DNA of 64,000 nt from Candidatus Saccharimonadia bacterium (GTDB lineage Bacteria; Patescibacteriota; Saccharimonadia; Saccharimonadales; 2-12-FULL-41-12), in the NCBI GenBank assembly GCA_963717365.1, contig OY970327.1:139599-203598 (forward strand). The letters are read 5' to 3'. The translations under genes and the position numbers were made by a program. Shown here in pieces: positions 143-35,983 of the stretch. Each line of letters starts with the position of its first letter. Position 1 is the stretch's first letter. The notes beneath the pieces were generated by a model. The model did not search any database. It was not told the DNA's origin and was given only the letters and a program-made list of their open reading frames with translations.

Positions 143-218
143 GCGGGTGTAGCTCAGTTGATAGAGCGCATCCTTGCCAAGGATGAGGCCACGAGTTTGA
201 GTCTCGTCACCCGCACCA
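143..218 (+). tRNA. tRNA-Gly(GCC)
   Basis: Cloverleaf by eye: acceptor gcgggtg/cacccgc, D-arm gctc..gagc, anticodon stem catcc/ggatg with loop ttGCCaa, T-arm acgag-tttgagt-ctcgt, CCA. Confidence 0.9.
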
Positions 219-323
219 AATAAATTGCAGAACATGACCTCAAGAAAACGTCGAGTAAATCGGCGTTTTTTGCTTTCACCCAAACTAGGACTCTAACTAA
301 TATTATTTGATACACTTAAAGTA

Positions 324-2774: not shown

Positions 2775-3506
2775 ATGAAAACTCGGTCAACTGGAATAAG
2801 CGTAGAATCGTTTCTTGAGAGTGTAAGTGACAAAAGGCGTGAAGAAGCTCACACTTTAATTGATATGATGCAAAAAATATCCAATGAAAAACCGTATATG
2901 TGGGGGTCAAGTATAATTGGTTTTGGCTCAATGCATTATAAATATGACACAGGGCGTGAGGGAGATATGCCCCAGCTTGCTTTTAGCCCACGCAAAGCTA
3001 GCATAACGGTTTATTTTGAGGGATTTGATAGATATGCTGATGAGCTGGCAGCTTTAGGCAAACACAAGCATAGCGTATCGTGTTTATATATAAATAAGCT
3101 TGCTGATGTTAATCTCGATATTTTGCGCAAAATGCTCGAGCAATCATTTGCCCTTGCCACTAAGTCATCTATCAAACCGACAACTGTCGATCAATATATT
3201 GTTAGTGTTCCTGTGGCCTCGCGCCCAAAATTTGATGAACTGCGTCAGATAGTTAGAGATGCTGTGCCGAATGCAAAAGAGGTCTTAAGTTATGGAATAG
3301 TCGGTTACAAAATCGATGACAAACGAGCCCGTGTATTCATTTCAGGCTGGAAAGATCATGTGGCTATGTACCCCGTTCCTCGTGGCAAAGAGCTGCAAAC
3401 AACGCTAGCTCCTTACATAAAAGGCAAAGGTACTTTGTGGTTTAGACTAGATGAGCCTTTGCCAAAATCACTTGTAAAAAAGGCAGTTGAAGCGTTGGTA
3501 TCTTAA
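2775..3506 (+). CDS. Tandem DUF1801 (YdhG-like) domain protein
   Basis: MWGSSIIGFGSMHYKYDTGREGDMPQLAFSPRKASITVYF, plus a second DUF1801-like half. ATG at 2775 chosen over the upstream in-frame start. Confidence 0.55.
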   Translation: MKTRSTGISVESFLESVSDKRREEAHTLIDMMQKISNEKPYMWGSSIIGFGSMHYKYDTGREGDMPQLAFSPRKASITVYFEGFDRYADELAALGKHKHSVSCLYINKLADVNLDILRKMLEQSFALATKSSIKPTTVDQYIVSVPVASRPKFDELRQIVRDAVPNAKEVLSYGIVGYKIDDKRARVFISGWKDHVAMYPVPRGKELQTTLAPYIKGKGTLWFRLDEPLPKSLVKKAVEALVS

Positions 3507-4160: not shown

Positions 4161-4952
4161 CTAAGCTTTATATTGGTGCATAGTAAGGCAAGCTTCGCCG
4201 AGTGCTACCGTCAGACCTCTAGTTTCAGCTAGTGATGCCAAACCATGTTGCAGCGCTTCGATAGGTGGTTCAGCCGGCTCTCCAGGAGCTAGGGTTCCTA
4301 CGGAGATATGGACTTGGTAGTTTAGTAGTCTTGATCTTTGTTTACCGAGCGCGGCTTGCAGATCGACAGTTTCAAATTCGGCGATATCGGCGTCTGTTCC
4401 TTGCAACTGGATGGCTAAAAATCTTTTACGCTTGGTGGCTTCATCATCTACGCCAAAGGTTATAACTTCACCAAGTGTAGGGTATAACACTGAACGATGT
4501 TCGTTAATGGCTTGCTGGTGGGCTGTCACAATATGATTAAATTGTGTCTCCTTACCAGCTGGCCGGTTAGCGTAGTTGCGCAGATAAAGCCACTCGGATT
4601 GCGAAGCTGTTAACAACGACGCACCTAGGTCAATATCGCGGGGCATGGCTCTGCGGCCATAGGGCGACAGAGCTTTCTTTGCTAATGCGGCCAGTACTAC
4701 GCTATCCTCTCTTCTTAAGCGACGCCTAAGAGAAGCAAACTCAAATGACCCTCTGCTGTGAGGCGTTGACGGTACGATGGATTGGCGTTTTCGTGAGCGC
4801 AATTCCTTCTTGGTTAGTTTGCCTGTATGGCGCTTTGCCGGATTTAAACCGTGCCTAGGATTTTGACTCGGGACAAATTTTTCATCTGGATCAAAACCCA
4901 TCTCCCCATAGTCGTTATCGTAACGGCTATCCAAATTTTCGTAATGAGCCAT
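4161..4952 (-). CDS. Hypothetical protein
   Basis: 263-aa ORF of intermediate GC. No motif recognised with confidence. Confidence 0.5.
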   Translation of the reverse strand: MAHYENLDSRYDNDYGEMGFDPDEKFVPSQNPRHGLNPAKRHTGKLTKKELRSRKRQSIVPSTPHSRGSFEFASLRRRLRREDSVVLAALAKKALSPYGRRAMPRDIDLGASLLTASQSEWLYLRNYANRPAGKETQFNHIVTAHQQAINEHRSVLYPTLGEVITFGVDDEATKRKRFLAIQLQGTDADIAEFETVDLQAALGKQRSRLLNYQVHISVGTLAPGEPAEPPIEALQHGLASLAETRGLTVALGEACLTMHQYKA

Positions 4953-5121: not shown

Positions 5122-5694
5122 ATGAATTTTGATCAAATTGTTAAAGCAATTGCGCAGCAGCCGGTTTCACACCGACCAATCATTATTGGCATAGATGGAT
5201 TTGGTGGGTCAGGTAAATCAACCTTTGCTGAAAAATTAAAAGTTGCTTTGGGCGACGCGTACGTCGTTCCTATTGATGATTTTTTCATTAAAGATAAGGC
5301 TACTGACGCTGATAAGTCTAATTTTGACAGAGACAGGCTGGAGCGCCAGGTGCTAATGCCTATCAGAGATGGCCAGCGCGCAGTGTATCATAAGCATAGC
5401 TCTAAAACAGACACGCCAGGTGAGTCTATTTCTGTTCCAGCTGCTACATATGTAATTATTGAAGGTGTGTCATCTTATCACCCAAACATTGAACATTATT
5501 ACGACTATAAGATCTTCATTGATACCCCAGCGGAGACCGCTAAACAAAGAGGCAGCTACCGCGATAAGAAGTTGGGGGATGGTAATGATACATTATGGCC
5601 TGTCTGGACTGCAACCTACGCAGAGTATAAAGAAATATATAAACCAGATGAAAGAGCTGACTTCATTTTAGATAACAAAAAGTCTGCAGCGTAA
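5122..5694 (+). CDS. Uridine kinase / PRK-family P-loop kinase-like protein
   Basis: IIIGIDGFGGSGKSTFAEKL P-loop, 190 aa. Confidence 0.55.
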   Translation: MNFDQIVKAIAQQPVSHRPIIIGIDGFGGSGKSTFAEKLKVALGDAYVVPIDDFFIKDKATDADKSNFDRDRLERQVLMPIRDGQRAVYHKHSSKTDTPGESISVPAATYVIIEGVSSYHPNIEHYYDYKIFIDTPAETAKQRGSYRDKKLGDGNDTLWPVWTATYAEYKEIYKPDERADFILDNKKSAA

Positions 5695-7179: not shown

Positions 7180-7689
7180 ATGGCTGAAGCAAAAGAAGCT
7201 AGAAGGGGTAACATAATTATCCCAGACTTAATCGATGATTTTCGAGAACTCACAGAGCTCAATGCCTTTATGGAGGGTCATAATTTTAACGGTGCGACGG
7301 AGTTTAAGCGCAATGAATTATCAGACGCAATAGGAGCAAAAATAGTAGGGCGCACGATTGAAGTGGTTGAACTTCCTATTGCAAGAGAAACTAATGAACG
7401 AGCTATAGAACATATAACATTAGCTAATACATTACAGATTGAATCGTTAGCTAAAGCTGTAGGAAACTATAACTCCAGCAGACGCTTACACCCTGCCACG
7501 GGCAGAGAGTACGTCTGCCATGATTTTTTCAGATATCGACGGCATAGCCGCCAAAATAAAGTGGAAGCAATTGATAAAGTTCGAAGTAATATAGTGGCCC
7601 GGCCTCGAATAGCTTTGTTTGATAGGGCATGGATAAGACTGGTTAACGCTGATGGCGAACAGCTGGTCGACATAACAATTACGGATTAG
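7180..7689 (+). CDS. Hypothetical protein
   Basis: 169-aa ORF. Confidence 0.45.
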   Translation: MAEAKEARRGNIIIPDLIDDFRELTELNAFMEGHNFNGATEFKRNELSDAIGAKIVGRTIEVVELPIARETNERAIEHITLANTLQIESLAKAVGNYNSSRRLHPATGREYVCHDFFRYRRHSRQNKVEAIDKVRSNIVARPRIALFDRAWIRLVNADGEQLVDITITD

Positions 7690-7760
7690 GATTAGTCATC
7701 TCTTTACCTCACTACCACGAAATATAAAGGCTCTACCACCTCTTTTGTTACCATTAGATT

Positions 7761-16426: not shown

Positions 16427-16768
16427 ATGCGTAAGTTCGGCATTTTCCTCGGCATCATCGTCATCCTGGCCATCATCGCCGCCATCGCTCTCGCCGCCAT
16501 GTCCAGTGGCATCAAGGGCACCGTCGTGGGCAAGACGTCCTCCAAGGGCACCGCCGTCTACAAGCAGAAGTGCAACAAGATGAAGGTCACGACGACCAAG
16601 AACGGCAAGAGGTCGACCAAGACCAAGAAGGTTTGCGGACCCAAGTCCTTCGCCGGCTACAAGACGAACTACCGGCTCCGCGTCAAGAACAAGAGCAAGG
16701 TCTCTACCGTCTCGGTCAGCCGCAGCACGTTCAACAAGAACCGCGTCGGGAGGAAGTACAAGAAGTAG
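16427..16768 (+). CDS. Small N-terminally membrane-anchored, Lys-rich protein, block A
   Basis: aggagg RBS, N-terminal TM segment, K-rich tail, G/C-ending codons. Confidence 0.5.
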   Translation: MRKFGIFLGIIVILAIIAAIALAAMSSGIKGTVVGKTSSKGTAVYKQKCNKMKVTTTKNGKRSTKTKKVCGPKSFAGYKTNYRLRVKNKSKVSTVSVSRSTFNKNRVGRKYKK

Positions 16769-16935
16769 CAACGCAGCAAGCTGGATCGCCAACTAAGTAG
16801 TCCTGACACAATCGGTGTCGGGCCGGCAGAGTGTCACAACATGAGCCCACGGACTCAAAGACACTCTGCCGAGGCAGGACTTTGTTAATTTGTTGATCCC
16901 CTGGATCCAAACCCAACTTACAAATTCCTGCCGCA

Positions 16936-16990
16936 TTTACCTACATAAATGTGTATTTATGCTGATGAGTCCAAAAGGACGAAAGGTAAA
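16936..16990 (+). ncRNA. Type III hammerhead ribozyme HHR1
   Basis: UUUACC-UA|CAUAAAU-GUGU-AUUUAUG-CUGAUGA-GUCC-AAAA-GGAC-GAA-A-GGUAAA. Predicted cleavage after 16943. Confidence 0.85.
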
Positions 16991-17028
16991 ATTACCAACA
17001 GAGTGTTCAATAAGGGGTTTATTTTTAT

Positions 17029-17080
17029 ACACTTTCGCCGTTTACGGCTCATCAGCATAGCTATAGTATCTATGGAGTGT
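17029..17080 (-). ncRNA. Type III hammerhead ribozyme HHR2 (divergent stems)
   Basis: Minus strand: ACAC-UC|CAUAGAUACUAUAGCUAUG-CUGAUGA-GCCG-UAAA-CGGC-GAA-A-GUGU. Stem I has one internal mismatch. Confidence 0.75.
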
Positions 17081-17260
17081 TGTACGGAAGAGCTGCATGT
17101 GTTTTTGTTGGTGGGTCGCTGGAATGCGATCCAAACACATGAGCCCTTCCGCAGGAGTTGATGGCTAACCTCCGAGCCAGTGTGATTTGTCTACTTCTCA
17201 GTAGAGAAGGACCTACTCACACGGTAGAATTTGTTGTACGTTATCCCGACTCAGACTGGA

Positions 17261-19731: not shown

Positions 19732-19771
19732 GGGGGCACCAGATTGAGTGGTAACACTCGCTGGTGCCCCC
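19732..19771 (+). terminator. GC-rich hairpin without U-tract (high-GC-style terminator)
   Basis: gggggcaccag-(18 nt)-ctggtgccccc. Confidence 0.5.
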
Positions 19772-19848
19772 ATCGGAGGTAAGAAAAGTAAAATTTGTTG
19801 TCCTAAATTGACTCCCAACACATTTTTTACAATTCTTACCTCCACATA

Positions 19849-19899
19849 TGCCTTCATGAATGTGTATTCATGCTGATGAGTCCTAAAGGACGAAAGGCA
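19849..19899 (+). ncRNA. Type III hammerhead ribozyme HHR3
   Basis: UGCC-UU|CAUGAAU-GUGU-AUUCAUG-CUGAUGA-GUCC-UAAA-GGAC-GAA-A-GGCA. Predicted cleavage after 19854. Confidence 0.85.
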
Positions 19900-20011
19900 A
19901 TGTAAAAACTTTTTAAAACATGCTACTACATCAAATTGATTTAATCCGCTCATGCTTGCAATCTATACAAGCCAGGTGTTAAATATTCTTTTAAAAGGGA
20001 CAGCTACACGT

Positions 20012-22417: not shown

Positions 22418-22495
22418 TCCCAAACGCACTAGTACGGCACCTTCCTTCACGGATGAAGTAAGGTGTCTGTACTAGGGCATGAAAGAGGTAACTCT

Positions 22496-23930: not shown

Positions 23931-23983
23931 GAATTTCGTAAAGTGTGTACTTTACCTGATGAGTCCAAAAGGACGAAAAATTC
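23931..23983 (+). ncRNA. Type III hammerhead ribozyme HHR4
   Basis: GAAUU-UC|GUAAAGU-GUGU-ACUUUAC-CUGAUGA-GUCC-AAAA-GGAC-GAA-A-AAUUC. Predicted cleavage after 23937. Confidence 0.85.
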
Positions 23984-27012: not shown

Positions 27013-28218
27013 ATGCTTAGTAAATACTTTGACCGCGACCGGCGACCAGAAATTAACCGCGAACTTGAGCCCTATACAAATATGGCGGCCGATGCTGAAG
27101 TTGAGCAGAGACTTGATGCTATGCAGCAGGATCTAGAGCTATCAAACCGTAATTTATTAACTTCAAACGACCGCTATCAAGCCAGTGCCTGTTATCTGTC
27201 ATTAGCTCGTAATAAACATATCTTGATGGCTACTATTGCTGGGCGCGTTACTACCGAAGACGGTAATAAAGAACTCCGCAGCGAACCCCACAAAAAACAA
27301 ACAATAATTCAGTTTATGACCCAAGGCTTTCAATCAAGCCGTGACAGCTTGGAATTTGTAGATGAAATAGAAGGGCAGCCCGGTTTTAAGTTTAATGACG
27401 GTCACATGCAGGGAATTAGGACGGTTGCTTCATTGCAGTGGCCACCTGCCGAACAGATGCCCAAACAGGCTATCATTGGCATCGCCGAGGCAGCCGATAT
27501 TATTACCGCTCACGTCGCCACTCAATTTGGTGAACTTACTAAATCAAACTCTGTGCCAAACGACTTTAGAATGGCACTCAGAAAGCAAGTAGACCCGCTG
27601 CTGGCGCAGGTTAATGCCAAAGCCAAAGCTATTGAACGATCAACTGGCGGTATGCTTGACCGGATTGATTCCGCCGCGATACTCAAAGGTATATATGATG
27701 ATGCAAAACAAGCAATTATAAAATTAGATGAAATTACCGTTTGGGCCACCGCTCCAAAACTATATGACCGCCGCTTTGAACTTAGAAATCCGCTTGATGA
27801 AGTGAACCCTAATAAAAAATCGTTTGACGCGTCAGCTCTTGGCGGCCCGGTAGTACGTCAGCATACGCATCTATACATTACACCTAACCCAGTACCGGCG
27901 GCCCCGCCAAAGCCCAAAGCCAGGCCATTTAATGCCGCTGCGCTGCAGGCTGCCACACCGCTAACACCGCCAATTGAAACACGGGTTACCCGGCCATTTA
28001 ATCCTAGCATTCTCTCCACTCCTCCAACACCAAAAGCGCCCGTTTCTCAAAAAACAGCCGGTAGGCAGTTCAGTCTTGATAGTTTAGCTCCCAAACCACC
28101 GAAAGCTTCGCCGCCAAAACCGGTAAGACGCGAATTTAGTAACGAAGACCTAGGTCCAGCACAGCCGCCAAAGCCTGCCAGAAAAACATTTGATCCTGAG
28201 CATCTGAACAAGAACTAA
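27013..28218 (+). CDS. Hypothetical protein with Pro-rich C-terminal repeats
   Basis: 401 aa. Repeated PPKP...[RK]xF motifs. Confidence 0.5.
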   Translation: MLSKYFDRDRRPEINRELEPYTNMAADAEVEQRLDAMQQDLELSNRNLLTSNDRYQASACYLSLARNKHILMATIAGRVTTEDGNKELRSEPHKKQTIIQFMTQGFQSSRDSLEFVDEIEGQPGFKFNDGHMQGIRTVASLQWPPAEQMPKQAIIGIAEAADIITAHVATQFGELTKSNSVPNDFRMALRKQVDPLLAQVNAKAKAIERSTGGMLDRIDSAAILKGIYDDAKQAIIKLDEITVWATAPKLYDRRFELRNPLDEVNPNKKSFDASALGGPVVRQHTHLYITPNPVPAAPPKPKARPFNAAALQAATPLTPPIETRVTRPFNPSILSTPPTPKAPVSQKTAGRQFSLDSLAPKPPKASPPKPVRREFSNEDLGPAQPPKPARKTFDPEHLNKN

Positions 28219-28238: not shown

Positions 28239-28270
28239 AAATGACAGACTACATATGTCTGTCATTTTTA
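28239..28270 (+). terminator. Intrinsic terminator
   Basis: aatgacagac-tacatat-gtctgtcatt followed by ttt. Confidence 0.7.
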
Positions 28271-28282
28271 ATTATCAGGTTT

Positions 28283-28350
28283 TAAATTCGGGGGTTACTG
28301 GGGGATGACTTAATTTGGTGGCTGGATTGCCAGAAAAAAAGTCACCCCCC
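28283..28350 (-). repeat. Conserved hairpin element, copy 1 (3' of the vWA gene); left arm of an inverted pair
   Basis: Minus strand GGGGGGUGACUU...AAGUCAUCCCCC-AGUAACCCCCGAAUUUA, which aligns with 30110-30181. Confidence 0.6.
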
Positions 28351-28402
28351 ATGGGTTGTTGTTGGGACCCCGTGAGGGATCTCGTAATGCTGTTGTGCCT
28401 GG

Positions 28403-29224
28403 TTAGGCGGCGATGAGACCCTTCTGCTTGGCCGCCGCGAGATACGTTGGTACCTCGTCGAGCATGGCCTCGTAGAAGGCATTGTCCGACGTGCCGCCGA
28501 GCGATGCGAGCTGCTTGGCATCGACGTTGTCGATCAGGCGTCCGCCCTTGTCGTAGTCGACTCCGACCGGAATGTCGTCGTCGAGCGACTCCAGGTAGGC
28601 CCAGCCGCCGCGGTCGTTGCCGACGAAGATGAACTTCAGGAAGACCGCTCGGTAGCTGAGACGACGGATGACGTCGGTGGCTGCGTTCCGATCGTTGGGA
28701 GAGCCATCGGTGACGATGGTCACGAACGCCGGCGTCTGCATCGGTTTGATGGAGGGCTTGGGAGCTCCGCCACCGCGCTTCATGAAGCCACCGCCGCCGT
28801 TGGCGAAGAGGTCGCCGTTGCCGGTGATCTCCGCGACATGCTTCAGGGCGAGGGCCAGATCGGTCGAGCCGCGGGCGGTGATGCCGCTGCGCTTGACGTA
28901 CTGGTGGAAGTCGGTCAGCTTGACCAGCTTCTCCTCGATCTGATGGTCGAAGAAGATCGTTGGTACCTCGCCGTCGTCATCGACGATGACGGAGAAACCG
29001 AGCGTCCGGTCGACCGCGTCCTGTACGCTGCCGTCGCGGTACTCGTGGCTCATGGAGCCCGAGCGGTCGACGACGAGGATGCACTGCCACGCCTGGTTCG
29101 GGTTGACCTTGTTGGTCAGCATCACCTGGATGGCTGCGTTGACCTTCTTGGTCATCAAACCGCCGGTGTTCTGCTGGGCGTCAGCCGCGGCTGCCTTCTC
29201 TTTGATCGTCTTCATGTTGGCCAT
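28403..29224 (-). CDS. vWA-domain protein, TerY-like, block E
   Basis: MIDAS motif VVDRSGSMS. gaggag RBS before the ATG at 29224. Confidence 0.7.
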   Translation of the reverse strand: MANMKTIKEKAAAADAQQNTGGLMTKKVNAAIQVMLTNKVNPNQAWQCILVVDRSGSMSHEYRDGSVQDAVDRTLGFSVIVDDDGEVPTIFFDHQIEEKLVKLTDFHQYVKRSGITARGSTDLALALKHVAEITGNGDLFANGGGGFMKRGGGAPKPSIKPMQTPAFVTIVTDGSPNDRNAATDVIRRLSYRAVFLKFIFVGNDRGGWAYLESLDDDIPVGVDYDKGGRLIDNVDAKQLASLGGTSDNAFYEAMLDEVPTYLAAAKQKGLIAA

Positions 29225-29414
29225 GTGAATGGCTCCTCTCGACTTGGGAAACAGGTACAATTGTATGGATATTACCAACAACAATCTGTAAAATAACATA
29301 AACTAAGATAAATTACAATAATGTGTGAAAATGCTTGTAAAATATATAAAATAGTGTAAAATACCATTTGTATTCAGCATCCCGCTGCTTACAAAACAAA
29401 GGGGACAGATCTAC

Positions 29415-30041
29415 ATGTCACTCCAGACGAAGAAGATCCCGCTCGCCCAGGGCGACACCAAGGCACTCCCGACCAACAAGGGTCAGGTCTTCACCGCCGG
29501 TGTCGGCTGGGATCCCGCCGCGGGCCAGGACACGGTCGACCTCGACCTCTGGCTGATCCGGACGCAGAGCGACGGCAACGTCGAGTGCGCCTTCTGGGGC
29601 AACCAGAAGTGGCAGCGTCCCGATCTGGGCACCAACGGCTCCGGCAGCCCCTACATCGCGTCCCCCGAGGGAGACGTGGTCCACAAGGGCGACGACCTGA
29701 CCGGTGCCGAGTCGGACACGGGTTACGACGAGACCATCGCCCTCGACCTGTCGAAGGCGCCGGCCACCGTGACTCAGTACGCGCTGTTCGCCACGATCTA
29801 CAGCGACGCGAACGACAAGACGCTCGGCATGGCCACCAACGTCATCTGCGGCGTCAAGGAGGAGAACTCGGGCAACGAGTACACCACCGAGCTCGCCGAC
29901 GATCACGGCTTCGACCTCTCGGTCCTCATCTGCACCATCGACAACGTCGACGGCAAGTGGAAGATGACCAACAAGGACGAGGGCTACGACGACCCGATGC
30001 CGGAGATCGCCAAGAAGCTGGGCGTGGTCGGCTTCCCGTAG
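29415..30041 (+). CDS. terD: TerD-domain stress protein, block E
   Basis: GVGWD, DLDLWL, HKGDDLTGAESDTGYDETIALDL, GKWKM...GYDD. Collinear with the TerD family pattern. Confidence 0.8.
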   Translation: MSLQTKKIPLAQGDTKALPTNKGQVFTAGVGWDPAAGQDTVDLDLWLIRTQSDGNVECAFWGNQKWQRPDLGTNGSGSPYIASPEGDVVHKGDDLTGAESDTGYDETIALDLSKAPATVTQYALFATIYSDANDKTLGMATNVICGVKEENSGNEYTTELADDHGFDLSVLICTIDNVDGKWKMTNKDEGYDDPMPEIAKKLGVVGFP

Positions 30042-30109
30042 GGACGCAAGCGCTTCAGGTCTCCTGAAGAACTGCGGCGCCCTCGGTAGCTGACAAGTTC
30101 TGTCTCCTA

Positions 30110-30181
30110 GGGGGATGACTTATTTTTTTGGCCTTTCAGCCACCAATCTAAGTCATCCCCCGCTACCACCCCACGAATTTA
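30110..30181 (+). repeat. Conserved hairpin element, copy 2 (3' of terD); right arm of the inverted pair
   Basis: GGGGGAUGACUUA-(26 nt containing UGGC-N6-GCCA)-UAAGUCAUCCCCC-GCUACCACCCCACGAAUUUA. Confidence 0.6.
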
Positions 30182-30401
30182 TTCATTAATATTGATAATA
30201 TTACAAAAATACGGTACAATATCTCATGTGTGCCGTATTTTTTATGTGCACGTACCTTAACAGTGTGAGTAATAAACTACGTTTGTTGAGGAGGGTAAGC
30301 ACTTGCTATTGAGTAATATCAACTGCTTACCCTTTCCAAACTAGACAAATCTTTCTCTGACTTTCCATCTGAAGCAACGACCCAAAAGGAGCGCAGTTCC
30401 T

Positions 30402-31508: not shown

Positions 31509-31547
31509 GGGTGTGGTCTCTAATGCTCCGCAAAGGAGACCACACCC
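31509..31547 (+). terminator. GC-rich hairpin terminator
   Basis: gggtgtggtctc-(15 nt)-gagaccacaccc, flanked by gaaaag/cttttc. Confidence 0.5.
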
Positions 31548-31610: not shown

Positions 31611-31652
31611 TAAACAAAAAAGAAGCCGTGCTGTATAGCCCGGCTTCTTTTT
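31611..31652. terminator. Bidirectional intrinsic terminator
   Basis: aaaaaa-agaagccg-(12 nt)-cggcttct-tttt. Confidence 0.6.
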
Positions 31653-35582: not shown

Positions 35583-35635
35583 TTCACTTTCGTCCTTTTG
35601 GACTCATCAGCATAAATACGCATTTATGGAGTGAA
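35583..35635 (-). ncRNA. Type III hammerhead ribozyme HHR5
   Basis: Minus strand UUCAC-UC|CAUAAAU-GCGU-AUUUAUG-CUGAUGA-GUCC-AAAA-GGAC-GAA-A-GUGAA. Confidence 0.85.
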
Positions 35636-35983
35636 GAGAGGGTAGAAAAGAAAGATTAGGGAGTCAAAAAGACTCAGTAAAAATTAATTTCTACCCCTTA
35701 TCGGTAGAGTTAGGAAGAGGTAAGAGTCAAAAAAGACCCAAAACTATCCTGTCTCAACGGCCGGGTGACAACATGCGAGCATAGCTCACGAAGTTGACAA
35801 CCCGTGCCGGCCTGGGAACCCAGGGCTTTATCTAATCTAGGCATAGACTGCCTTGTTGCGGTCAGAACCACAGACCTTCGAGTAGAACGCTGATCACGAT
35901 CGAAATCCACCTTGACGGCAGAGATCAGCTGGCACTCGCTGACGTACAGTTCGCGTGAAGCGAGTCGACGTTAGCGTTTGTGC

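Follow-up and report, generated by a model that had tools for sequence, protein, structure and literature searches.

Look-alike 3'-untranslated-region stem-loops of the divergent vWA and terD genes in a Candidatus Saccharimonadia bacterium

The 64-kb window analyzed here, a stretch of contig OY970327.1 from a Candidatus Saccharimonadia bacterium, is a segment of bacterial chromosome with LigA, LeuRS, a Mur ligase, and five tRNAs. Near its middle a vWA-TerF-like gene (hereafter vWA) and a terD gene stand back to back, the identities of both—proposed in an earlier sequence-only reading—being borne out by the PF10138 and PF02342 matches, and the nearest named homolog of TerD belonging to a Candidatus Saccharimonadales bacterium. 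A long hairpin lies in the 3' untranslated region (3' UTR) of each gene, and the two hairpins are so alike that they form an inverted pair around some 1.9 kb of DNA. That reading had weighed two explanations for the pair, a new self-cleaving ribozyme or the terminal inverted repeats (TIRs) of a miniature inverted-repeat transposable element (MITE); the evidence assembled below points instead to mRNA stem-loops.

The twin hairpins and their orthologs

Copy 1, downstream of vWA (28354-28280, minus strand), and copy 2, downstream of terD (30106-30184, plus strand), align over 79 columns with a mean column identity of 87%, and a repeat finder independently recovered the pair as inverted arms of 49 nt with 80% complementarity. 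The strong likeness spans about 72-76 nt, from GGGGG to GAATTTA; toward the gene it ends at the stem base and away from the gene at GAATTTA, the flanks of both copies being unrelated to each other; the arm motif GGGGGATGACTTA, with up to two mismatches allowed, occurs in the whole window at only these four arms. Gene calls place copy 1 at 52 nt after the vWA stop and copy 2 at 68 nt after that of terD, each in the sense orientation of its own gene, so that in these respects the first description of the pair was accurate.

Both copies adopt a common fold, in which an outer stem of 13 bp (GGGGG(G/A)UGACUU... paired with ...AAGUCAUCCCCC) is followed by an internal loop, U-rich and A-rich, a 2-bp step, and the small inner hairpin UGGC-N6-GCCA, the latter having likewise been noticed at the outset. 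The stem of copy 2 is GGGGGAUGACUUA/UAAGUCAUCCCCC, with a U-rich internal loop and the inner hairpin UGGC-CUUUCA-GCCA. The predicted stabilities of copy 1 (-30.4 kcal/mol, z = -4.5) and copy 2 (-30.3 kcal/mol, z = -6.7) were attained by none of 200 shuffled sequences in either instance. The differences between the copies fall mostly in unpaired columns (6 of 14, vs 2 of the 38 paired ones; Fisher p = 0.003). Beyond each stem extends a tail of 17-20 nt, 12 of whose 20 columns are identical between the copies, and tails resembling that of copy 2 follow terD in the related loci L030 and L034 (CCCACCCCAUGAUUUUA) and in L050 (GUAGUACCCC). An outer helix enclosing the hairpins (GGUAGC...GCUACC at terD, GGGGU...ACCCC at vWA) was also considered and received no support from RNAalifold; the candidate sequence at terD is present in L032 as well.

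For the comparison with relatives we used the loci L030/L031, L032, L033, L034/L035, L036, L037/L038, L040/L041, L042, L043, L045/L046, L048/L049, and L050, whose TerD homologs are at best about 61-64% identical to that of the window. The divergent arrangement of vWA and terD is kept in all of them but L050, and 12 related loci have the order hypothetical gene, vWA (-), terD (+), usually within a full Ter cluster with TelA, TerC/DUF475, HAD, PRTase_3, C-C lyase, and ATP-grasp_Ter. On the left of the pair, the hypothetical gene has equivalently placed orthologs, with E = 3e-60 in L045 and E = 2e-55 in L030, and the vWA-terD segment has the same orientation as in the relatives. In every fetched locus a long GC-rich hairpin with a stem of 12-20 bp occurs 10-100 nt after the stops of both vWA and terD; and within each of the relatives' loci the hairpins of the two sides are mutually dissimilar.

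On the vWA side, the hairpins of the relatives are homologous to one another, being of the CGGGUUGGCCCGG... type, and differ from copy 1 of the window. RNAalifold, applied to seven of these, gave a consensus helix of 13 bp in which seven pairs exhibit compensatory double changes and 93.4% of the cells are paired; not one of 500 column shuffles reached the observed pairing or covariation, and upon sliding the partner strand by one to three columns the pairing fell to 22-63%. On the terD side, GGGGUGG...CCACCCC forms the base common to the relatives' hairpins. The covariance model R1, derived solely from the pair in the window, matched the 3' UTR of the L050 terD with 39.7 bits (E = 1.7e-10), where all the pairs are standard though several stem positions have changed on both sides, and where the inner stem is CGGC/GCCG instead of UGGC/GCCA. 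The helices of the L050 minimum-free-energy structure coincide with those of the window (13, 2, and 4 bp, with the same internal loops), while the apical loop has 4 nt vs 6. The terD hairpins of L032 and L040 match more weakly; their architecture is the same, the inner stem being UGAC/GUCA in the former and GAC/GUC in the latter. The more distant orthologs in L039, L043, L045, and L030 are plain long hairpins, and the only nucleotides conserved in all the orthologs are the G-run and the C-run at the base of the stem. The element is thus a conserved 3'-UTR stem-loop whose pairing has been kept through compensatory changes, as the sequence-only reading had surmised in calling it a conserved structured element.

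In the surroundings of the vWA-side hairpin, a CAACAAC-type motif precedes the stem (window ~28352-28366, minus strand; L030, L032, L034, L036, L040, and L042), and in most relatives a gCAACAC-type motif follows it; these flanks are direct, G-poor, and C/A-rich, and could be single-stranded spacers or a rut-like sequence.

Origin of the two copies and DNA-level alternatives

The terD-side copy is native and vertically inherited, since its fold recurs, with compensatory changes, in the L050 ortholog. The vWA-side hairpin has, in this lineage alone, replaced an ancestral one of a different type, because copy 1 resembles the hairpin of its neighbor and not the vWA-type hairpin that is found in L036, the closest relative with sequence downstream of vWA; and, since L036 still retains that hairpin, the replacement is recent. 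The ancestral vWA-side hairpin was overwritten by a terD-type copy, the mechanism of which would be gene conversion or re-copying of a tract of about 52-75 nt, and the event produced the inverted repeats of 70 bp that look terminal. How far the copied tract reaches in the 3' direction is uncertain, and part of the copy 1 tail may be native to the vWA 3' UTR, because CC..GAAUUUA or CGAAUACUA already stands at the end of the vWA-side tails in L030, L034, and L036. Among the relatives examined, the replacement of one copy by the other is seen only in the window lineage.

The sharing of stems between neighboring Ter genes within a genome is nevertheless recurrent, being observed both in the window and in L043, where the 3' hairpins of two tandem terD paralogs (4630-4700 and 5506-5570) have stems identical at 30 of 30 positions and loops that differ at 4 of 6, the proteins themselves being only 51% identical. 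This sharing points to a strong constraint on the stem, to stem homogenization, or to both.

That the pair might act at the DNA level—as the TIRs of a MITE or composite transposon, as a mobile palindrome similar to the repetitive extragenic palindromic (REP) sequences, or as the site of a 1.9-kb inversion—was suggested by the roughly 70-bp inverted repeats, with TAAATTCG...CGAATTTA at their ends, around a cargo with no transposase, a configuration that does resemble a MITE, and by a folding potential without strand asymmetry. The supposed cargo and its flank, however, consist of syntenic orthologs: the gene of 401 aa, vWA, and terD, together with their neighbors, recur in the 12 related loci, with dissimilar hairpins of their own at the same sites and with the segment in the same orientation. 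We found no empty site in the relatives, which keep the hypothetical gene, vWA, and terD with their own hairpins. The MITE reading is therefore ruled out, because the cargo and both of its borders are conserved synteny. The TA at both ends of the repeats is uninformative as a target-site duplication, the flanks being AT-rich.

No transposase, REP-associated tyrosine transposase (RAYT, Y1), or integrase domain was found among the open reading frames given to Pfam, nor does any stand beside the element. The flanks are direct CAACAAC/CAACAC-type motifs and not the inverted cores R'' (RYYYAAC) and R' (GTTRRRY) of an integron attC site, and the genes, being divergent with a promoter region of their own, do not have the layout of integron cassettes. 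The hairpins lie on opposite strands with neither tnpA nor tnpB between them, in disagreement with IS200/IS605 ends.

The searches for further copies gave a similar picture. Outside of the pair, the window contained no other copy, and exact-pattern searches recovered none in 185,579 species genomes (a set from which the source species is apparently absent) or in the JGI metagenomes, the 3'-half pattern GCCACCAANNTAAGTCATCCCCC also giving 0 matches in the latter. Among viral contigs, the stem pattern GGGGRTGACTT-N15-45-AAGTCAYCCCC retrieved a single phage, represented by three contigs, whose perfect hairpin is unrelated; in the species genomes it retrieved 26 loci from unrelated phyla, all with different hairpins and none with the UGGC-N6-GCCA core or the tail. 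About 4 such loci would be expected in random sequence and more among natural palindromes, by a rough, uncomputed estimate, and we treated the 26 as chance matches. In several unrelated genomes, the GGGG(G)TGACTT...AAGTCA(C)CCCC palindromes, with the same 11-mer in the stem, do constitute multi-copy families with conserved flanks, as in a Hyphomicrobiaceae metagenome-assembled genome (loci L004, L008, L010, L012, L015, and L026), in Actinoplanes (L007, L011, and L019), and in two Verrucomicrobiales assemblies of the former kind (L006, L018, L020, and L029), which circumstance might speak for a mobile palindrome; the shared core may be coincidental, those loci having been selected by the search pattern itself. 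With all this taken into account, we consider an element acting at the DNA level very improbable.

Hammerheads, terminators, and the GC3-rich genes

The hairpins belong to a wider class within the window. The base composition of the window is about 42% GC, with blocks of 58-66% GC, and this contrast resides wholly in the third codon positions, the GC contents of the first and second positions being equal between the two classes of genes. Among the genes between 15800 and 37200, 12 have a third-position GC content (GC3) of 0.68-0.94 vs 0.34-0.48 for all the others, and vWA, terD, and the adjacent TerC/DUF475 gene are of the GC3-rich class. The Ter genes are GC-rich islands in the relatives that were checked, with 58-67% GC vs a background of 45-47% in L030 and with 60-69% in the other loci measured. 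The GC-rich unit of terD and of vWA, as judged by eye, takes in about 30 nt of 5' UTR and ends with the 3' hairpin. Two other genes of this Ter cluster, HAD and PRTase, are low in GC3 in the window and GC-rich in L030. The GC3-rich state persists across lineages whose proteins share only 50-60% amino-acid identity, and therefore recent horizontal transfer alone is no explanation of it.

In a scan for perfect stems, GC-rich ones of 10 bp or more turned up at the 3' ends of GC3-rich genes (starting at 16824, 19732, 30110, and 31509) and, elsewhere, only two others, which are described below with the neighboring features. In a GC-corrected folding scan the outstanding intergenic windows, canonical terminators aside, are those that follow GC3-rich genes, and the same scan in L030, L032, and L033 revealed long hairpins after nearly every gene of the Ter cluster. 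A long GC-rich 3' hairpin is accordingly a conserved feature of vWA, terD, and most of the other GC3-rich genes in this clade. A strong hairpin at 22426-22478 (z = -4.7), in the short gap between a DndB-like gene and a gene of 434 aa, is of the same class and lies inside a likely operon.

Many of these hairpins are accompanied by a hammerhead ribozyme. Exactly five hammerhead cores are present in the window (CUGAUGAG...CGAAA; near 16962, 17055 on the minus strand, 19873, 23956, and 35610 on the minus strand), all in the 3' UTRs of GC3-rich genes; the cores are intact and the scores below the Rfam gathering threshold (E-values down to 5e-4), with four of the five folding into the three-way junction. 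Upstream of four of them a long hairpin was flagged (those beginning at 16824, 17086, 19732, and 35758 in Table 1), and upstream of the one near 23956 only a weaker long-range stem was discerned by eye. In the blocks of the window and in L032, L043, L045, and L050 the hammerhead is placed 5-120 nt 3' of the class hairpin; among the relatives this succession follows TelA in L032 and L043 (with only about 5 nt between the two) and terD in L045, and it also occurs upstream in L050. The sequence-only reading had assigned the twins to the slot occupied by hammerheads in the other blocks, an assignment that did not hold, since those blocks have a long GC-rich hairpin of their own 5' of the ribozyme. 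Because the hammerhead blocks carry both, the hairpin is a separate module and not a substitute for the ribozyme.

Table 1. Coordinates of the features discussed (positions in the window unless a locus is named).
Feature	Position	Strand	Remarks
Class hairpin after gene 16427-16768	16824..16871	+	then hammerhead 16935-16992
Class hairpin after DUF6910 gene	17086..17150	-	hammerhead 17031-17078 within ~8 nt
Class hairpin after GC3-rich Zn-ribbon gene	19732..19771	+	hammerhead 19847-19901 75 nt later
Left gene, 401 aa, convergent with vWA	27013-28218		orthologs in L045, L030
Canonical bidirectional intrinsic terminator	28239..28267	.	11-bp stem, T-runs on both strands; 15 nt past copy 1 tail
Copy 1 tail, AGUAACCCCCGAAUUUA	28283..28299	-	alignment with copy 2 tail
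Hairpin copy 1, lineage-specific copy of terD type	28300..28350	-	vWA 3' UTR; one G-U in stem
vWA-TerF-like gene, 273 aa	28403..29224	-	PF10138, E = 8e-32; GC3 0.87
Divergent promoter region between vWA and terD	29225..29414	.	AT-rich, ~32% GC
terD, 208 aa	29415..30041	+	PF02342; GC3 0.94
Hairpin copy 2, native	30110..30161	+	terD 3' UTR; fold, L050/L032/L040 comparison
Copy 2 tail, GCUACCACCCCACGAAUUUA	30162..30181	+	C-rich, G-poor, AU-rich motif at end
Terminator-like hairpin, A-tract/10-bp stem/T-run	30205..30242	+	23 nt past copy 2 tail
Class hairpin, TerC/DUF475 3' UTR, 12-bp stem	31509..31547	+	then canonical terminator 31617-31652
Class hairpin upstream of hammerhead near 35610	35758-35809		fold/stem scans
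Hammerheads, minimal type III	16935-16992 (+), 17031-17078 (-), 19847-19901 (+), 23931-23983 (+), 35586-35632 (-)		short stem III
Hammerheads of relatives	L032 ~3240-3290, L043 ~7680-7735, L045 ~3095-3150, L050 ~200-250		minimal type III, below gathering threshold

The same facts bear on the proposal that the twins are a new class of self-cleaving ribozyme, which would take the place of the hammerhead in these two blocks. Their position in the 3' UTRs of a hammerhead-rich region, their conserved fold with an internal loop, and their conserved tail could be read in that sense; yet nothing other than the G-run and C-run is retained in all the orthologs, the inner part in particular not being conserved in the distant ones, and the fold exhibits neither a multi-helix junction nor a supported pseudoknot. 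Rfam scans of the region from 15 to 38 kb at E <= 5, and of the elements alone (220-240 nt) at E <= 10, matched neither element to any family, ribozyme or other—hammerhead, twister, twister-sister, pistol, hatchet, HDV-like, hairpin, and others being considered among the ribozymes—and gave for the elements only microRNA-precursor and small-RNA-terminator models at 8-21 bits, far below gathering. Like the type III hammerheads of RF00008, the twins occupy 3' UTRs in the same set of neighboring GC3-rich genes; unlike them, they have no CUGAUGA...GAAA core, and the hairpin is 5' of the hammerhead wherever both are present. We accordingly hold a new ribozyme to be extremely improbable. The tail CGAAUUUA was also considered as the remnant of a hammerhead (stem III plus cleavage site), an idea prompted by the hammerhead at 23931, which begins CUCGAAUUUC; no hammerhead signal follows either tail, GAATTTA occurs 12 times in the window, and the idea was set aside for want of support.

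Two further features of the hammerheads may be mentioned. Their stem II (UCCAAAAGGA) is near-identical among four of the five in the window and the L045 hammerhead; and directly 5' of two of them, at 19775-19843 (+) and 35636-35700 (-), there are AU-rich long-range stems (GGAGGUAAGAA...UUCUUACCUCC and GGUAGAAA...UUUCUACC), which may be accessory helices or insulators.

Since the hammerheads 3' of the class hairpins would otherwise not be transcribed, RNA polymerase presumably reads through those hairpins, which argues against their being efficient terminators. For that read-through the observations are of two kinds, both at the level of sequence: the hammerheads directly 3' of class hairpins and the separate terminators downstream. 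Canonical terminators stand 15-60 nt past the hairpins here and in most relatives, and a scan of both strands for terminators called the one at 28239-28267 but neither of the long hairpins as a whole. No U-tract adjoins either long hairpin, the stems being followed by GCUACCACCCC and AGUAACCCCC. That the twins are terminators or pause hairpins independent of a U-tract, perhaps relics from a GC-rich donor for which the canonical terminators serve as back-up, would agree with a GC-rich stem located, as in an intrinsic terminator, downstream of the gene (50-70 nt after the stop, at the end of a GC-rich block) and with the C-rich, G-poor sequence and AU-rich tail that come next. Besides lacking a T-run within 0-2 nt and having a separate terminator downstream, however, the twins differ from the canonical terminators of the same genome in a far larger stem and loop, and we judge this alternative unlikely.

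As to the remaining features of the neighborhood, the intergenic region between vWA and terD contains five promoter-like sites vs 1.4 expected, and the terminator-like hairpin at 30205-30242 overlaps a promoter-like site of the next gene. A 10-bp hairpin at 30292-30333, upstream of the TerC/DUF475 start and likely in its 5' UTR, did not match the terC motif of Rfam or the yybP-ykoY riboswitch. The other stem detected by the perfect-stem scan is a 16-bp perfect inverted repeat at 97-167, of which one arm is the 5' part of a tRNA-Gly (143-218) and the other, just upstream, a reverse-complement tRNA fragment adjoining that gene.

Probable function of the stem-loops and its implications

Taking the foregoing together, we favor, with moderate confidence, the view that the twins are 3'-UTR stem-loops of vWA and terD that serve as an element for the protection or processing of the mRNA 3' end. 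The hairpin would be transcribed within the mRNA and transcription would continue past it, the 3' end being made downstream by the canonical terminator here and by the hammerhead in the other blocks. The long stem would then block 3'-to-5' exonucleases, or would serve as a processing site, so as to leave a mature and stable 3' end; and this protection might act after termination, after hammerhead cleavage—upon which the mRNA would terminate in the hairpin at its 3' end—or after an endonucleolytic cut in the AU-rich tail.

The REP sequences in the 3' UTRs of Escherichia coli and the 3' inverted repeats of chloroplast mRNAs are stabilizing stem-loops, and the hairpins described here resemble them in several ways: a stable imperfect palindrome lies tens of nt after the stop, the pairing is kept over the sequence, the palindrome is presumably transcribed and does not terminate efficiently on its own, and in one genome the copies may come to be almost the same. 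The stems of the window type are, by comparison, longer (12-20 bp), gene-specific, tied to GC3-rich genes, and often coupled to a hammerhead, and in the 64-kb window and the proteins scanned we saw no sign of the hundreds of copies or of the RAYT transposase that go with REP sequences. The RNase III sites of phage T7 are irregular hairpins between genes, and the upstream message would, once they are processed, end in a protective 3' hairpin. As in those sites, a lower and an upper stem are here parted by an internal loop; the upper stem, by contrast, has only 4 bp here, and the distant orthologs have no internal loop.

Whether such elements operate as RNA in the sense strand had been argued from a wobble, in that the single stem difference is a G-U pair in the sense RNA of copy 1. 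The wobble is indeed there, but it does not carry the argument: the 32 class hairpins have 23 G-U pairs in the sense strand vs 16 in the antisense, and the folding energies of the two strands do not differ (Wilcoxon p = 0.37), the sense strand being favored in 14 hairpins and disfavored in 17; copy 2 itself folds better on the antisense strand. The coupling to hammerheads, together with the orientation preserved in the copying, constitutes a better argument for an RNA-level function in the sense strand.

Several points weigh against the protective or processing role. To the observed structure, conservation and covariation, position, copying, and separate terminators, that role is added by analogy. 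Since folding has no strand asymmetry, an action as a hairpin of single-stranded DNA is compatible with the sequence; and, as the copy count covers 64 kb of a genome of about 1.19 Mb, so is a dispersed repeat family in the rest of it. The identity of stems within a genome, moreover, hints at a sequence-specific recognition beyond a generic block to exonucleases, as does the conservation of the internal-loop sequences (U-run and CAAUC) between the window and L050 even though the stem has changed.

These last two points lead to the further alternative that the hairpins are a sequence-specific binding or cleavage site common to both mRNAs, for an enzyme of the RNase III type or for a regulatory RNA-binding protein. 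In this instance vWA and terD would be co-regulated, and the need to fit one trans factor would explain the homogenized hairpins. A long irregular helix equivalent to some 19-21 bp, interrupted by an internal loop, would suit such a site, as would stems that are identical within a genome while the loops have diverged, both in the window and in L043. Against it, the distant L039, L043, L045, and L030 orthologs are plain hairpins with unrelated loops and thus without a universal recognition motif, no candidate factor was identified, and the slow evolution of the stem would be expected under a purely structural constraint as well; a shared site of this type therefore seems improbable to us.

Returning to the protective or processing stem-loop, we regard the pair as mostly an element of an ordinary kind: an unannotated 3'-UTR stem-loop made conspicuous by homogenization. 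A bolder extension, possible but rather doubtful, is that the hairpin is one module of an undescribed transcript architecture, conserved in this clade, in which each unit of a GC3-recoded subset of genes (GC3 0.7-0.94, with about 30 nt of 5' UTR at one end and the hairpin at the other) would be followed by a minimal type III hammerhead and/or a terminator so as to yield long-lived mRNAs, trimmed by the ribozyme and capped by the hairpin, whose stems a genome-specific trans factor would keep identical. In the searchable library, literature searches found no paper that links hammerheads or self-cleaving RNAs to Saccharibacteria, Patescibacteria, or the candidate phyla radiation.

By itself, the pair is a tidy case of concerted evolution between the 3'-UTR stem-loops of neighboring genes, and a caution that inverted repeats around genes need not be the ends of a transposon. 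Less ordinary is the context, conserved across this Saccharimonadales clade, of GC3-recoded genes that end in a hairpin and often then in a minimal type III hammerhead. The wider pattern is that, in these ultra-small bacteria of the epibiont type, long 3' hairpins consistently accompany a class of strongly GC3-biased genes—those of the Ter stress system, one similar to DndB, one for an ion channel, and others—and are often followed directly by hammerheads. If the hairpin and the ribozyme together define the 3' end of the mRNA, bacteria would here be making natural use of self-cleaving ribozymes to mature their mRNAs, and the bacterial hammerheads would gain a testable function.

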